Source: a virus
Lineage: Duplodnaviria; Heunggongvirae; Uroviricota; Caudoviricetes
IMG/VR virus record: IMGVR_UViG_2737471865_000004
Location: 1-7,457 of that record
Strand: one strand, 5' to 3'
Length of the DNA stretch: 7,457 nt
In this document: positions 1-7,457 of the stretch, one piece after another
How positions within the stretch are numbered: the stretch's first letter is position 1
Layout: each line of letters begins with the position of its first letter
Made by a program: the position numbers and the translations under genes
Notes under the pieces: model-generated
Databases searched by the model: none
What the model was told of the DNA's origin: nothing
The model's input: the letters and a program-made list of their open reading frames with translations, nothing else

Positions 1-93
<93 letters not shown>

Positions 94-196
94 AAACTGG
101 GGATAACGCCTTAAATGGCGAAGAAACGGTCTAAATAGGCTGATTCAAGGCATTTACGGGAGAAAAAATCGGCTCAAACATGAAGAAATGAAATGA

Positions 197-3100
197 CTGA
201 GTCAGCCGAGAAGAATTTCCCCGCTTATTCGCACCTTCCCTAATAATACAACCATTAACGGAGGAAGACAGACAATTCATGACGGGGGCATTTCCACCGG
301 TACGATAATCGACAGTGGCAATCAGGACGTTTATACAGGTGGTATCAGCAATGGAACGACAATTAAGGGTGGTAATTCACACATAAGTGGGGGGACTGCG
401 AATGGAACCATCATTGATGGTGGAGGGCAGACAGTAACAACTCAGGGGCATGTTGATGGTACAACGATAAATAAGTCCGGTTATCAGGACATCACGCAAG
501 GAAGTATTGCAACGAACACAATCATAAATGGTGGACGACAGTATGTTGAACAGAGCACAGTAGGAACAACCACCATTAAAAATGGCGGTGAGCAAAGAGT
601 ATATGAAAGCCATGCGCTGGACACGACGATTGAAGGTGGAACTCAGTCTCTGAATAATAAGTCAACGGCAAAAAATACTCAGATCTATTCTGGTGGTACG
701 CAAATTGTTGATTACACCAGCTCCTCGGATGTTATTGAAGTTTATTCCGGTGGCGTGCTTGATGTTAGTGGTGGTACGGCAACAAATGTTACCCAGCACG
801 ATGGTGCAATTTTAAAAACAAACACTAACGGTACGACGGTGAGCGGTACGAATAGTGAAGGTGCATTCTCCATCCACAATCACGTGGCAGACAATGTGTT
901 GCTGGAAAACGGTGGTCATTTAGACATAAACGCATATGGTTCGGCAAACAAGACGATTATTAAAGATAAAGGAACAATGTCAGTTTTAACGAATGCTAAA
1001 GCTGATGCGACCCGAATAGATAACGGCGGGGTAATGGATGTTACCGGAAACGCGACCAATACCATAATCAATGGTGGTACACAGAATATTAATAATCATG
1101 GTATTGCCACGGGTACCAATATCAACGGCGGAACGCAAAATATCAAGAGCGGCGGGAAAGCTGACACGACAATTATATCCTCCGGGAGCCGGCAGGTTGT
1201 TGAGAAAGATGGTACGGCAACTGGCAGCAATATTAGCGCCGGAGGCTCGCTGATTGTCTATACCGGTGGTATTGCACATGGGGTTAACCAGGAGACGGGC
1301 AGTGCTTTAGTTGCCAACACGGGCGCAGGGACTGATATTGAAGGATACAACAAGCTCTCTCACTTCACTATTACCGGAGGGGAGGCTAATTATGTTGTGC
1401 TGGAAAATACCGGCGAACTGACGGTAGTGGCTAAAACCTCGGCGAAAAATACTACCGTTGATGCTGGCGGTAAGCTGATTGTCCAGAAGGAGGCTAAAAC
1501 AGATACCACCAGACTTAATAATGGTGGCGTTCTGGAGGTTCAGGACGGTGGTGAGGCTAAGCATGTTGAGCAACAATCCGGCGGCGCATTAATTGCTTCC
1601 ACAACTTCCGGAACCCTTATCGAAGGAATCAACAGTTATGGTGATGCTTTCTACATCAGGAATTCAGAAGCTAAAAATGTAGTGCTGGAAAACGCTGGCT
1701 CATTAACAGTCGTCACTGGTTCCCGGGCAGTTGATACGATTATTAATGCCAACGGCAAAATGGATGTTTATGGAAAAGATGTTGGCACTGTACTCAATAG
1801 TGCTGGCACCCAAACAATATATGCCAGTGCCACTTCTGATAAAGCAAATATCAAAGGTGGCAAGCAAACGGTATATGGATTAGCCACTGAGGCAAATATC
1901 GAAAGTGGTGAACAAATTGTTGATGGTGGGTCAACAGAGAAAACACACATCAATGGTGGCACGCAAACCGTTCAGAATTATGGTAAGGCAATCAATACCG
2001 ATATCGTCTCTGGCCTACAACAAATTATGGCAAACGGGACAGCGGAAGGTTCCATTATTAATGGGTGTTCACAGGTAGTTAATGAGGGCGGTCTGGCTGA
2101 AAACTCGGTGCTTAATGACGGCGGCACACTCGATGTGCGGGAGAAAGGCAGCGCAACGGGGATACAGCAGAGTAGCCAGGACGCTTTGGTTGCAACCACC
2201 AGGGCGACGCGGGTCACAGGAACACGCGCGGATGGCGTCGCGTTCAGCATCGAGCAGGGTGCGGCGAACAATATCCTGCTGGCAAATGGCGGCGTGTTAA
2301 CCATGGAGTCAGACACCTCTTCTGACAAAACACAGGTCAATACGGGCGGACGGGAGATCGTCAAAACAAAAGCCACTGCGACAGGCACGACGCTCACCGG
2401 CGGCGAACAAATCGTCGAGGGGGTGGCGAATGAGACAACGATTAACGACGGCGGAATACAAACAGTTTCAGCTAACGGAGAGGCAATAAAAACAAAGATC
2501 AATGAAGGCGGTACGCTGACAGTTAACGATAATGGCAAAGCGACAGATATCGTCCAGAACAGCGGTGCCGCTCTCCAGACGAGCACGGCTAACGGTATTG
2601 AAATCAGCGGTACTCACCAGTACGGCACTTTTTCCATTTCCGGCAATTTAGCGACCAATATGTTGCTGGAAAATGGCGGTAATTTATTGGTATTAGCAGG
2701 TACCGAAGCTCGCGACTCCACGGTTGGCAGCGGTGGAGCCGCCAACGGCAGTTATCGCAGCAACGGGCTGGGCGGTCACATTGAAACCGGGATGCGATTT
2801 ACCGATGGTAACTGGAACCTGACGCCGTATGCATCGTTAACGGGGGTTCACCGCTGATAACCCTGAATATCATTTATCCAATGGCATGGAATCGAAATCA
2901 GTCGATACCCGCAGTTTATATCGTGAACTGGGTGCAACGCTGAGTTACAACATGCGTCTGGGGAACGGTATGGAAGTTGAGCCGTGGCTGAAGGCGGCTG
3001 TGCGCAAAGAATTTGTCGATGATAACCGGGTGAAAGTGAATAGTGACGGTAATTTCGTCAATGATTTGTCGGGCAGACGTGGAATATACCAGGCAGGTAT

Positions 3101-3212
3101 TAAAGCCTCATTCAGCAGTACGTTAAGCGGGCATCTTGGGGTGGGGTATAGCCATGGTGCCGGTGTGGAATCCCCGTGGAACGGGGTAGCTGGTGTGAAC
3201 TGGTCGTTCTGA
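197..3212 (+). pseudogene. ypjA: Type Va (AIDA-I/Ag43-like) autotransporter adhesin remnant, ypjA-like; 5'-truncated and frameshifted
   Basis: One frame is open from 197 (just after an in-frame TGA at 194-196) to TGA at 2855-2857, with no in-frame ATG or signal peptide; the track ORF 755-2857 begins at an internal GTG. Translation is Gly/Thr/Asn-rich with recurring ...T-I-I-N-G-G-T-Q... units typical of AIDA-type passenger repeats. ORF 2886-3212 in another frame ends ...GVNWSF, a typical beta-barrel C-terminus; that frame is open back to 2841, so the frame switch lies at about 2841-2857. Symbol is by synteny only: an autotransporter 3' end ~160 bp from the ssrA-derived att core, as I recall for ypjA next to CP4-57 in E. 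coli K-12. Confidence 0.75.
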
Positions 3213-3221
3213 CCATCAACG

Positions 3222-3245
3222 AAAAAGCCCACATCTGTGGGCTTT
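3222..3245. terminator. Bidirectional intrinsic terminator hairpin (AAAAA-GCCCAC-ATCT-GTGGGC-TTT)
   Basis: Perfect 6-bp GC-rich stem 3227-3232 / 3237-3242 with a 4-nt loop, A5 tract upstream and T3 downstream on the plus strand; on the minus strand the same hairpin is followed by TTTTT. It lies 10 bp after the autotransporter stop and ~130 bp downstream (minus-strand sense) of the ssrA 3' end. Confidence 0.5.
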
Positions 3246-3372
3246 CATGTCACCAGGAGCCGCGGCTCCTTTGCGTATCCTTTTATGTCTCTTCACCGTC
3301 TGGTCGGTGTCCTGCTGAGACTGCTAACTTCCTGTTTTTATTGGTGTTGTCCTTATACCGTCCAATCATGAT

Positions 3373-3417
3373 TGGTGGAGCTGGCGGGAGTTGAACCCGC
3401 GTCCGAAATTCCTACAT
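3373..3417 (-). other. ssrA: 3'-terminal ~45 nt of ssrA (tmRNA) including the CCA end: prophage attachment-site core at the prophage/chromosome junction
   Basis: Minus strand reads ...ATGTAGGAATTTCGGACGCGGGTTCAACTCCCGCCAGCTCCACCA, which matches the 3' end of E. coli tmRNA as I recall it. The match stops at 3417/3418 and nothing upstream resembles the rest of ssrA, so this is a fragment or att core, not a gene. Confidence 0.7.
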
Positions 3418-3533
3418 ACCATTTTGACTATAATAAAAACATATATTTATGTTTTAAAACAGTACGTTAGTGTTATTTTGTTTTTGTCGGTTTTACACAT
3501 TTTTAATGCTCTGCCGCCAAGTTGTCGCCATTG

Positions 3534-4517
3534 CTAATTCCTATCAGCAGGTAGAATTGCTGGGTAGAGCTTAGAGCAATCATTGCCATAGTCAGGGATA
3601 AAGTCCCATAGCCCTTTTGGCGTTTGGAAGACCTCAGGGCTTAAGCCAATCAGCATATAAACATGAACTAACAGCTCGCGCAATCCAGTGACCATTTGCT
3701 TTATTTGTTTTTCATCAGAGAAAGAAGTGGTGAAGGGTTTTTCTTCAATGGAGTCAAAAAGAATAAACTCATGTTTTTCATATCGATAGTCGATCCCTAA
3801 TTCTCTGCAAAGTTGGATAATATTGATTTCGAGCATTTGAAGGGAAATCACTTGGATATCATAAGAAGTCTCTTTGTTGTAACAGCTTTTAATAGCTTTG
3901 TTGATATTCTTATAATAATCTTGAACTCTACCCATAAATAATGAACTTATTTCTTTGCTATAGCCTTCTTCAATAGAGGATTTTGTAAAAATATTCATGT
4001 AAAGAATATAAGGGTGAGAAATGGAAAGTTCTATATATTTTTTTCCATCATCGTGTTCGGTAAACTCTCTACTAACGATAAATGAAGGGACGGTTTTAAA
4101 AATATCGGCATAACTCTTCTGGTGGGCATAAAATGAATCAGATTTATTTTTTGCTTTTACCAGCTCTATTTGATGCTCTGTCCTTGAAAGCTGCGTCTCT
4201 GTTTGAATGGTCCTGTGAATATTCTTAACTATAGCTCCAAGAGGTACTGAACTGGCTAGCAGCATTAGAGGGAATTTACTGATTTCGTAAAAGCGAGTAT
4301 AGCCGTGGGCACTTAACACCGGGACCTTGCCCCACCATGCGAAAATCCCAAAATAAAAGAATGATAATACTGGTATTCCGATTGATAACCAGAATAATTT
4401 CTGTTTTATAAGGTTTTGTTCATTTAATAAATACCACTTGTATTTATATGTTAAATACAATATGTATATTAACATTACAACATAGAACATAATGCCAATT
4501 GATGAATAGAGGGTCAT
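3534..4517 (-). CDS. Hypothetical membrane-anchored protein, 327 aa (two N-terminal hydrophobic helices plus ~265-aa C-terminal domain); AT-rich prophage cargo gene of unknown function
   Basis: Uninterrupted 327-codon ORF. Its ATG (4517-4515) overlaps the int stop codon (ATGA overlap). Hydrophobic segments at roughly residues 7-24 and 41-62. Hand-counted GC of sampled 60-nt stretches is ~23-28% versus ~48% in int. No catalytic motif I can recognise. Confidence 0.7.
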   Translation of the reverse strand: MTLYSSIGIMFYVVMLIYILYLTYKYKWYLLNEQNLIKQKLFWLSIGIPVLSFFYFGIFAWWGKVPVLSAHGYTRFYEISKFPLMLLASSVPLGAIVKNIHRTIQTETQLSRTEHQIELVKAKNKSDSFYAHQKSYADIFKTVPSFIVSREFTEHDDGKKYIELSISHPYILYMNIFTKSSIEEGYSKEISSLFMGRVQDYYKNINKAIKSCYNKETSYDIQVISLQMLEINIIQLCRELGIDYRYEKHEFILFDSIEEKPFTTSFSDEKQIKQMVTGLRELLVHVYMLIGLSPEVFQTPKGLWDFIPDYGNDCSKLYPAILPADRN

Positions 4518-5541
4518 GCTTTTTTCCAGTCTAATTTGTAAAGTGGATTTTTTGTTACAGCATCTTCCAAGTGATCAGGGGCAAAGTGAGCGTAAACCAT
4601 CGTCATTTTTATATCAGCATGGCCCAGAATATCGCGCAGTACCAGTATATTTCCGCCGTTCATCATAAAATGGCTGGCGAATGTATGGCGCAGTACGTGG
4701 GTGCACTGGCCCTCTGGCAGTTCGATACCGGCTCGCTTTACTGCACGCTCAAAGGATTTTCTGCATGGGGTAAATAATCTCCCCCTGTTTTTAGGTAGTT
4801 CGTCATACAGTTCTTGAGATATTGGAACGGTTCGGTTTTTTTTACCTTTGGTCTTGGTATAAGTAATGCGATATTTTGATAACTGATGCCCTTGCAGGTT
4901 TTCTGCTTCACTCCATCGGGCACCAGTTGCTAGGCATATTTTTGCAATCATCAACAGACTGGGACTCTGAGAATCAGCACAGGCATCCAGTAGGCGTTTA
5001 ATTTCTTCCGGGGTCAGGAATGCTAGTTCACCCTCAGCGATTTTAAATGTTGGCAGCCCGACGAGAGGATTTGGTGCTGACCAGTGGCCTAGTTTTTTCA
5101 ATGTGCCGAAAACCGATGATAGGTACGTTGCTCAAGATTCACCGTGCGTGGTTTTACTGGCGACATTAGTGTGCCGTCTTCGTTACGAAGGTCACCTTTT
5201 AACCGTGCTTCGCGGTATTTCGTAAAGTCTCCGGCTGTCAGTTCTGAGGCGATGGGGTCGCCTAGACCATTACAGATAATTCTAAGTTTCGCCATGAGGC
5301 GCTTGGGGTCTGCGAGTGTCTGACCATACAGGGAATACCAAAGCTCAATTAACTCTGATAGGCGTCGCCGATCATCCTTTTCACCCAACCACGGTTTTTT
5401 ATTCACTTCTTCCATTGTGAAGCTTTCAAACGCAATGGCTTCGCCTTTCGTGGCAAATTGCTTACGCACGCGCTTGCCATTGCGTCCATTGGGATAGCAC
5501 TCACACAACCATTTTCCGTTCGGCTGTTTTCTGATGGTCAT
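4514..5541 (-). pseudogene. int: Tyrosine recombinase / integrase of the P2/186 family, split by a frameshift (N-terminal part 5098-5541, C-terminal part 4514-5101)
   Basis: N-terminal ORF begins MTIRKQPNGKWLCECYPNGRNGKRVRKQF... and C-terminal ORF carries ...LATGARWSEAE..., ...HVLRHTFASHFMMNGGNILVLRDILGHADIKMTMVYAHFAP..., which recall the P2 Int catalytic region. The C-terminal frame is open only from 5131 downward after a stop at 5132-5134, and homology resumes there (…ATYLSSVFGTLKKLGHW), so a single indel at about 5123-5135 separates the halves. Combined length ~340 aa. Confidence 0.85.
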
Positions 5542-5542
5542 A

Positions 5543-6175
5543 TCAAAGGCTCTTAATGATTTTCAGTGCGCGGCCTACTACCTCAATGTCATCCAGGCCG
5601 CACTCAAACGATGAATCATCCTGATGCACTACTAATTTGTTTCCCGGGAGTCGAGTCAATTTAACAATGCTTTTTATCCCGTCGATATCGACTAACCACA
5701 TACCATTTACTAGTGGTGTTTGGTTGCGATCTATTAAATAAGAATCACCAGAAGTAGTCACCAGCAGTAGGTTGCTTGAGTTTGAGGGGAGTATGCTGCT
5801 ATCAATGATTGCTTTTCCAGCATCGATCAATAAACCACCGTTGAGAGTCGCCTTGTCAATTTCAGGAGATACTAGTTCAGAAAGAGGTATAACCTTGCTG
5901 GAGTTCACGGAATTGATATTTTTTTTGGGTTCAATGTTTGAACCTGGCTCCCCCTGTCCGGTGGTTAGCCACAGTAAAGAAACTCCTGTTTCCAAGGCGC
6001 ACTGAATCACCCACTCTGCAGGAAAACTATCTCTTAAGTATCTGTTTGCCATGGTACTTTTTGATGCGCCTAAGTGATCGCAAAGTTGCTGTCTGGACTT
6101 GAAATCATAGGCTGCCATTAGTCTATGGATAGCCTCTCTTCCCCCTGTATTCTCTCCAGCCTTTACCTGTATCAT
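5543..6175 (-). CDS. cI: CI-type lysogeny repressor (N-terminal HTH domain); occupies the 186 cI / P2 C position immediately upstream of int
   Basis: 210-codon ORF whose stop lies 1 nt before the int start, implying a cI-int operon. N-terminal region (...SRQQLCDHLGASKSTMANRYLRD...) looks like an HTH. AGGA sits about 6 nt upstream of the first ATG; an internal Met 19 codons in would give 191 aa. Confidence 0.65.
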   Translation of the reverse strand: MIQVKAGENTGGREAIHRLMAAYDFKSRQQLCDHLGASKSTMANRYLRDSFPAEWVIQCALETGVSLLWLTTGQGEPGSNIEPKKNINSVNSSKVIPLSELVSPEIDKATLNGGLLIDAGKAIIDSSILPSNSSNLLLVTTSGDSYLIDRNQTPLVNGMWLVDIDGIKSIVKLTRLPGNKLVVHQDDSSFECGLDDIEVVGRALKIIKSL

Positions 6176-6192
6176 TTTTTAATCCTGTTGGC

Positions 6193-6239
6193 GTATCAAA
6201 TATTGGATCGTAGTATCTCGATGTATCAAATATTGAATC
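6193..6239. promoter_or_regulatory. Two direct copies of a 17-bp operator-like element (GTATCAAATATTGGATC / GTATCAAATATTGAATC) in the repressor-Cox/Apl intergenic switch region
   Basis: Copies at 6193-6209 and 6223-6239 are 16/17 identical with starts 30 bp apart; each contains the palindromic core AATATT, and a third GTATC half-site sits at 6213-6217. They lie between divergent regulatory genes where operators are expected. Promoter -35/-10 elements could not be assigned with confidence. Confidence 0.35.
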
Positions 6240-6294
6240 AAGTAAAACGAGATAAAACGACGTAAACCAAACCTTAATCGGGAGATACTGCACT

Positions 6295-6537
6295 ATGAGC
6301 ACTGATATTTCAATTCGTGTACCAAAAGAGATGGCTACGCCTGCAGAGTTCGCGGAATGGGAAGGTATCTCCCGCGGCTCCGTGTATCAAAAAATTCACC
6401 ATGGTCAGCTTGCTAAATACATGGTCAAGAAAGAAAAAAACAAAGGCCGCGTAAGCCTGCGTTATTTAATGTACAAAACCGATCAGGTCCGTGAATCCCT
6501 CGGTCATTCCAACTTCCGCGTCATTGTTGGTAAGTAA
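6295..6537 (+). CDS. Small HTH regulator, Cox/Apl-like (excisionase / lytic-switch protein), 80 aa
   Basis: First rightward gene of the switch, in the same position as 186 apl / P2 cox. The segment ...TPAEFAEWEGISRGSVYQKIHHGQL... resembles the HTH region of P2 Cox as I recall it. Confidence 0.5.
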   Translation: MSTDISIRVPKEMATPAEFAEWEGISRGSVYQKIHHGQLAKYMVKKEKNKGRVSLRYLMYKTDQVRESLGHSNFRVIVGK

Positions 6538-6569
6538 GTTCAATTATGAGAACTTTCTAAGGGGGTAGC

Positions 6570-7079
6570 ATGTTTGATTATAAGATTTCCAAACACCCGC
6601 ATTTTGATGAAGCCTGTAGAGCTTTTGCACTTCGTCACAATATGGCGAAGCTGGCAGAACGTGCAGGAATGAATGTCCAGACTTTGCGAAACAAACTCAA
6701 CCCAGATCAACCGCATCAGCTAAATGCGCCAGAAATCTGGCTGCTTACCGATCTGACTGAAGATTCAACGCTGATAGATGGTTTTCTGGCACAGATTCAC
6801 TGCCTGCCATGTGTACCGATTAATGAGGTAGCAAAAGAGAAACTGCCGCATTACGTCATGAGTGCAACCGCAGAGATCGGGCGTGTTGCTGCAGGTGCGG
6901 TATCTGGAGATGTAAAAACCAGTGCAGGTCGTCGTGATGCTATCAGCAGCATTAACTCTGTAACACGACTGATGGCGCTGGCTGCTGTTTCATTGCAGGC
7001 CCGTTTACAGGCTAACCCTGCGATGGTGAGTGCAGTTGATACCGTGACTGGCCTCGGTGCTTCATTCGGTTTGCTGTGA
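6570..7079 (+). CDS. cII: CII-like lysogeny-establishment transcriptional activator (phage 186 CII family), 169 aa
   Basis: Strong RBS AAGGGGG about 4 nt before the ATG. Same position (second rightward gene) and same length as 186 CII as I recall; N-terminal HTH-like segment ...NMAKLAERAGMNVQTLRNKLNP... Confidence 0.65.
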   Translation: MFDYKISKHPHFDEACRAFALRHNMAKLAERAGMNVQTLRNKLNPDQPHQLNAPEIWLLTDLTEDSTLIDGFLAQIHCLPCVPINEVAKEKLPHYVMSATAEIGRVAAGAVSGDVKTSAGRRDAISSINSVTRLMALAAVSLQARLQANPAMVSAVDTVTGLGASFGLL

Positions 7080-7086
7080 GGTGCTT

Positions 7087-7383
7087 ATGCTGAAGAAAGA
7101 ACCATCATTTGCATCGCTGCTGGTAAAACAAAGCCCGGCAATGCACTACGGTCACGGCTGGATCATGGGTGAGGATGGGAAACGCTGGCATCCATGTCAT
7201 TCACAAGATGAATTGCTGTCTGAATTGACCACGAGGAAACGGAGAAAGTCAAAATGTATGCAGCGGAAAGTGAAGTGGTTTATCAGTTTCGTTACAGAGG
7301 GGAGAGTTATTCAGTACCTGAAGATGATTTGCTCTGTTGTTATCCGTCGTTGTCGGGCGATGGCAGTTACTTTTTCACGCTAA
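7087..7383 (+). CDS. Hypothetical phage early protein (position of 186 fil/dhr-type genes); start assigned to the ATG at 7087 rather than the track start at 7057
   Basis: GAGG lies 5 nt upstream of the ATG at 7087. The C-terminal third of the translation is unusually Cys/Arg-rich, so the true extent is uncertain (see findings). Confidence 0.3.
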   Translation: MLKKEPSFASLLVKQSPAMHYGHGWIMGEDGKRWHPCHSQDELLSELTTRKRRKSKCMQRKVKWFISFVTEGRVIQYLKMICSVVIRRCRAMAVTFSR

Positions 7384-7457
7384 GGAAGGTGCGAACAAGT
7401 CCCTGATATGAGATCATGTTTGTCATCTGGAGCCATGGAACAGGGTTCATCATGAGT

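Follow-up and report, generated by a model that had tools for sequence, protein, structure and literature searches.

The question raised by this locus is whether an integrase gene split between two reading frames reflects a real mutation, and whether that mutation has locked a prophage into its host chromosome. The window, by which we mean the whole stretch of DNA that was analysed, is 7,457 nucleotides long (positions 1 to 7,457 of IMG/VR virus record IMGVR_UViG_2737471865_000004). The initial annotation had described two integrase ORFs of 147 aa and 195 aa lying in different frames, and both were present on the minus strand as described. A Pfam search placed the Int_N domain on the first ORF and the Phage_integrase domain on the second. 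The interval that had been given for the split, 5098-5135, turned out to be exactly the overlap of both int frames, and the proposed junction (...PRTVNLEQ followed by YLSSVFGTLKKLGHW) was off by no more than one residue, since ...PRTVNLEQRNLSSVFGTLKKLGHW is what the intact protein reads.

We compared the int locus, which occupies 4514-5541 on the minus strand, base by base with the intact gene of E. coli strains 33-6 and SCU-106. The locus measures 1028 nt in the window and 1029 nt in the intact allele, and the two are identical over 418 bases from the 5' end and 611 bases from the 3' end. One deleted base is the sole difference from the 33-6 and SCU-106 allele, which was confirmed by a comparison over 7 kb. 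The alignment to intact int genes that had been suggested with the initial annotation therefore placed the indel exactly: a single T stands at window position 5124 (deletion site 5123-5125) where intact alleles have TT on the plus strand, and the coding strand, having lost one A of an AA pair, reads CGTACC instead of CGTAACC. As a result, codon 140 is ACC in place of AAC (Asn), and the reading is out of frame from there on. The truncated product consists of native residues 1-139 followed by eight wrong residues, TYHRFSAH, and a TGA stop at 5098-5100. This is the 147-aa ORF of the program-made list (5098-5541, minus strand), and it holds the arm-binding region together with about 70% of the core-binding (Int_N) domain. 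The C-terminal frame (4514-5131, minus strand) lies at -1 relative to the N-terminal frame; it is the native frame (ATYLSSVFGTLKKLGHW...) and is open from 5131, with an upstream stop at 5132-5134. The listed 195-aa ORF within it (4514-5101) starts at a TTG at 5101, which is L148 of the intact protein. This frame contains the remaining part of the core-binding domain and the entire catalytic domain, the same as in the intact allele. No uninterrupted full-length integrase frame was found in the window, where a stop is reached eight codons past codon 140. We conclude that the int locus is a pseudogene of the tyrosine integrase family, and that it calls for one annotation rather than two integrase genes.

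When the missing base was restored, the reconstructed integrase (Int) matched both Int_N (E=8e-29) and the catalytic Phage_integrase domain PF00589 (E=1e-24), two domains that lie on separate ORFs in the window. Int_N spans residues 57-167 and the break falls at residue 139, which is profile position 72 of 100. The frameshift thus splits the core-binding domain and parts it from the catalytic domain. Residues 170-334 aligned to the catalytic-domain structure of HP1 integrase (1AIH; E=1e-68), and residues 48-334 to the integrase in PDB 5C6K (E=4e-54). Both are more distant proteins from other phages and served for domain mapping only; the catalytic R, H-x-x-R, H and Y are kept in common between them and the reconstructed Int. 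These residues (R209, H282, R285, H308 and Y317, in the order R...H-x-x-R...H...Y) all lie within the stranded C-terminal frame. At the protein level the reconstructed Int was 92.4% identical to the integrase of Fels-2, 90.6% to that of SopEPhi, 93.5% to those of RE2010 and Cartapus, and about 60% to that of PSP3.

A single-base indel could also be a sequencing or assembly error, with the gene intact in the cell, and the initial annotation had offered a homopolymer error as its alternative. In a megablast search of complete E. coli genomes, seven genomes matched at 99.7% identity or more, and each carries a 1029-nt stretch that PGAP annotated as a single 342-aa site-specific integrase. The intact protein WP_023241491.1 is found in strains SCU-106, 33-6, LR-25 and WGI31CT, whose gene is identical to the window int at all common bases (1028/1028); these strains keep the base that the window lacks, and their int gives a single 342-aa protein. 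An exact search with a 40-mer bearing the deletion gave 0 matches in GTDB species representatives, IMG/VR and JGI metagenomes, and the absence of the allele from these collections and from complete RefSeq E. coli genomes could be read in favor of an error. The run in question, however, is AA, only two bases long and no long homopolymer; that word is the one inaccuracy in the initial annotation's description. Moreover, Logan-assembled contigs of two public runs, SRR2239586 and SRR33746293, encode precisely the 147-aa truncated product; these runs were separately sequenced and assembled and carry the identical deletion. Over window 3388-7405 (4018 nt), a stretch that includes the first 22 bases of the right-hand IS5 described below, the SRR2239586 contig matches at 100% identity, and this run probably represents the same strain as the window; if the window assembly derives from it, SRR33746293 alone counts as truly independent. 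The SRR33746293 contig has the same int deletion plus two SNPs in cI, at 5827 and 5890, and therefore comes from another strain or sample than the window. With the allele recurring in a second sample that carries its own SNPs, we regard an error as very unlikely. The intact 342-aa protein was encoded on at least 1000 contigs and the truncated product on 2, and since the gene otherwise agrees with intact alleles at every base, the mutation is recent and confined to a small lineage. These comparisons argue for a genuine, heritable, rare and recent allele.

A real frameshift need not inactivate a gene. The two ORFs could be a functional arrangement in which a programmed -1 frameshift, or reinitiation at ATTGA, gives active Int, or in which the 147-aa fragment has a role of its own. 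The geometry of the junction lends this some appeal. The TGA stop of the N-terminal frame overlaps the TTG of the C-terminal ORF (ATTGA), and a -1 (or +2) shift anywhere in a 31-nt stretch would reach the C-terminal frame. The loss would be limited to residues 140-147, and the two halves, if both were translated, might in principle reassemble with just these residues missing. In addition, a 144-position PHROGs family named integrase, phrog_11531, matches only residues 1-146 of the reconstructed Int, and N-terminal integrase fragments of about 146 residues therefore recur in phage or prophage records. Against this, the frame overlap at 5101-5131, which reads CAA CGT ACC TAT CAT CGG TTT TCG GCA CAT TGA in the zero frame, contains no in-phase slippery heptamer of the form X XXY YYZ within its 31 nt, and an A AAA AAC heptamer sits beyond the stop of the N-terminal frame. 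Programmed frameshifting was rejected for lack of an in-phase slippery site. No purine-rich Shine-Dalgarno sequence is visible ahead of the TTG at 5101, so efficient reinitiation there is not expected, and we rejected termination-reinitiation on the same ground. The relatives also speak against a functional split: they carry a single int ORF, uninterrupted on at least 1000 contigs, and in a tblastn search of Int against phage records, 59 of the 60 among the matches listed align as one piece. Splitting is therefore no family trait, and the cut falls inside a folded domain. Weighing these points, we consider a functional split extremely improbable.

A further candidate was transcriptional slippage at a run of six A's (A6; minus strand, 5093-5098). 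The run begins within the stop codon, so that a change in its length cannot remove the stop, and this candidate was rejected as well. Lying eight codons downstream of the deletion, the run could be a recurrent slippage site in relatives.

We identified the element that carries int by comparing the window with prophage-free E. coli genomes. These match the window only up to position 3417, and at that point their ypjA directly adjoins ssrA. The window has instead, at 3373-3417 on the minus strand, a displaced 45-nt copy of the ssrA (tmRNA) 3' end, which represents the att core copy at the int-proximal boundary; positions 3373-3415 are 100% identical to the ssrA 3' end. ARAGORN found no tRNA or tmRNA over the window, the 45-nt ssrA fragment being too short for this program. 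We also considered ileY, which we take to be the attachment site of phage 186, and the comparison with prophage-free genomes ruled it out in favor of the ssrA 3' fragment. In SCU-106, a complete ssrA stands at the far end of the 32-kb prophage. An ssrA 3'-end attachment site is shared with Fels-2 and SopEPhi, two P2-like phages of the genus Felsduovirus that integrate into ssrA (PMC3448106).

To the right of int, we found a switch region of the 186 type, with a CI-type repressor divergent from apl/cox, cII and fil. All four genes are intact: the CI immunity repressor (5543-6175, minus strand; 210 aa; Pfam Phage_CI_repr and Phage_CI_C; WP_023167678.1), an Apl/Cox-like excisionase and repressor (6295-6537, plus strand; 80 aa; phrog_6912, excisionase, and phrog_575, Cox-like excisionase and repressor), a CII-type regulator (6570-7079, plus strand; 169 aa; PF06892) and fil (7087-7383, plus strand; 98 aa). 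Fels-2 and SopEPhi share this gene order, att - (cargo) - int - cI / apl - cII - fil. The window differs from these two phages in its 1-nt deletion at int codon 140, in having another cargo gene between int and att, and in an IS5 after fil. Its closest counterpart is the corresponding end of the SCU-106 prophage, which is 99.9% identical over window 378-7385, including the ypjA remnant, the ssrA fragment and the 327-aa cargo ORF. SCU-106 lacks the IS5 after fil and has a complete 32-kb P2-type prophage that extends to an intact ssrA, with P2-type replication, head, tail and lysis genes; the window itself ends within IS5 at 7384-7457. From the close similarity of its Int to that of Fels-2 and from the attachment site, the element is identified as a Fels-2-group (P2/186-like) prophage at the ssrA 3' end, beside ypjA, in E. 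coli.

Only three differences from SCU-106 fall in the prophage part of the window. One of them is at 6191, within the switch/operator region and 16 nt ahead of the cI start, where the window has G and SCU-106 has A. The SRR33746293 contig has the window's G at this position.

In P2-like phages, integration and excision are both carried out by the tyrosine integrase (PMC3448106). With Int needed for both reactions and int broken, self-excision should therefore be lost, and the prophage is probably unable to excise by itself. A related Int acting in trans could still excise it. The explanation that we favor, and hold to be highly probable as a whole, is that a Fels-2-group prophage of P2/186-like type, located at the ssrA 3' end, had its tyrosine integrase gene turned into a pseudogene by a spontaneous one-base deletion. 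Translation covers residues 1-139 and eight out-of-frame codons before it stops, which leaves the catalytic domain in the -1 frame. The sole start before the catalytic domain is a TTG without a visible Shine-Dalgarno sequence, so no active Int would be expected, and without active Int neither autonomous excision nor re-integration should occur. CI, Apl/Cox, CII, Fil and the cargo ORF being intact, the end of the prophage that confers immunity and carries the cargo would stay in the chromosome. The int mutation would be one step in ordinary prophage decay, alongside the IS5 after fil.

The initial annotation had gone further and proposed a prophage locked in by this single frameshift. The frameshift itself held up as real, heritable and inactivating, given its presence in two runs, the split domain and the lack of a slippery rescue. 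The proposal did not hold in treating it as the single cause, since there is a further lesion, the IS5 after fil, and it overlooked a possible effect on the cargo gene.

The further lesion is part of a pair of IS5 copies. The right-hand copy (7384-7457, plus strand) enters the window with its transposase-proximal end, GGAAGGTGCGAACAAG..., and the window ends at ATGAGT preceding the rest of the element. The left-hand copy (1-239, plus strand) contributes its transposase-distal end, with the InsH C-terminus ...RQWERSH* and the terminal repeat ...CTTATTCGCACCTTCC. The assignment to IS5 was based on the 16-bp terminal inverted repeats, GGAAGGTGCGAA(C/T)AAG, and on InsH coding sequence, and "IS5 family transposase" is annotated under the matches to both ends; the repeats are those of IS5. 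A CTAA, the 4-bp target that IS5 duplicates, is found on the inner side of both copies, at 240-243 and 7380-7383, their outer sides falling beyond the window. On the left, IS5 abuts this CTAA within ypjA and interrupts that gene. On the right, it stands directly after the fil stop, inside the early lytic operon, and the target CTAA includes the TAA stop of fil. In SCU-106, 33-6 and FREC5, fil is followed by DUF5347, DUF2732, a TraR-like gene, dam and a replication endonuclease, where the window has IS5. Because this insertion sits after fil in the early lytic operon, the int lesion is not the sole one, and the int frameshift is one of at least two lesions in the visible end of the prophage. 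Only the int-proximal end falls within the window; the remaining roughly 28 kb of prophage would, if still present, lie beyond the right-hand IS5. The two copies have the same orientation and bracket the whole 7.1-kb segment. The pair may have arisen by two simple insertions, or it may be what an IS5-mediated rearrangement or deletion left behind.

The host flank (240-3212, plus strand) consists of remnants of the ypjA/ehaD autotransporter gene. IS5 has removed its 5' part, and what is left forms two separate ORFs, one of 700 aa (755-2857) and one of 108 aa for the beta-barrel (2886-3212). SCU-106 has ypjA in the same split state, and PGAP calls it a pseudogene there. Relatives have decayed independently: the cargo ORF is truncated in 33-6 and FREC5, and fil is truncated in FREC5. 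E. coli NCTC9038 carries a second, truncated integrase remnant by an IS3-like element (L006, 6578-7294), located between ypjA and a Fels-2-like prophage, and elements have therefore repeatedly occupied the ssrA site and decayed there.

We then considered what the frameshift might mean for the cargo ORF (3534-4517, minus strand), which lies between int and the attachment site and encodes a predicted helical membrane protein of 327 aa. Its ATG overlaps the int stop (ATGA, 4514-4517). A simple consensus scan of the minus strand from 5100 to 4517 gave no sigma-70-like site, and with none between the frameshift and the cargo start, expression of the cargo probably depends on read-through from cI-int. 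The premature int stop lies 580 nt upstream of the cargo and could be polar on it, through lost translational coupling or Rho-dependent polarity. The frameshift may thus lower cargo expression instead of simply fixing the cargo in the chromosome.

This bears on whether the inactivation of int was selected, in a process of domestication that holds CI immunity and the cargo module in the chromosome, as opposed to neutral decay. In line with domestication, none of CI, Apl, CII, Fil and the cargo ORF is broken, and all of them are almost the same as their counterparts in intact prophages. The cargo also occupies a slot that houses defence genes in relatives: in those found, an anti-phage dCTP deaminase, GapS1 or an HNH protein is encoded between int and att, an interval that has been described as a minor P2 defence hotspot (PMC13586616). 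Non-mobile P2-like elements with stabilised defence genes have been described in the same study (PMC13586616). The allele, on the other hand, is very rare (2 contigs) and recent, and so gives no hint of having spread. Nor is the cargo known to act in defence, and the frameshift may even be polar on it, given a start that overlaps the int stop and the lack of a sigma-70-like site upstream in the simple scan. On balance, we judge selected inactivation to be very improbable. A more elaborate version, which we consider very unlikely, would make the 7.1-kb IS5-bracketed segment a domesticated immunity-plus-accessory cassette in which loss of Int was favored against excision, the 327-aa membrane protein acts as a novel anti-phage factor, and the two IS5 copies might even move or delete the whole cassette at once. 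Under ordinary decay, which we prefer, selection for chromosomal retention is neither needed nor shown.

Such decay has ample precedent. At least one pseudogene is carried by 98% of P2-like prophages, and in defective P2-like elements pseudogenised mobility functions often lie beside conserved, intact defence genes (PMC13586616). The window resembles these defective prophages in having an integrase pseudogene that adjoins an intact accessory gene in the int-att slot; it differs from them in that its cargo has no known defence function and in that any loss of prophage sequence lies beyond the view of the window. Fixation of repressor and cargo in the chromosome has thus been described before. 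The window int is an ordinary pseudogene and a textbook case of prophage decay, the decay of mobility genes with immunity and accessory genes left intact being well documented. The main consequence is one of annotation: the entry for this locus should name one integrase pseudogene, broken by a frameshift, in a Fels-2-like prophage at ssrA.

The sole lead of some wider value is the neighboring 327-aa protein, of unknown fold, whose place between int and att is taken by defence genes in related prophages. It had no match in Pfam, NCBIfam or PADLOC, and matched PHROG 17460, a family of unknown function. Its homologues were found in Enterobacterales only, and all are named "hypothetical protein". 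Conservation is highest in the motif NIHRTIQTE (residues 99-107), with I100-E107 invariant and N99 almost invariant. The structure model was confident (pLDDT 84.5) and consists of three N-terminal helices, then a long helix, then a mixed alpha/beta C-terminal part. The three N-terminal helices are predicted from the sequence to span the membrane.
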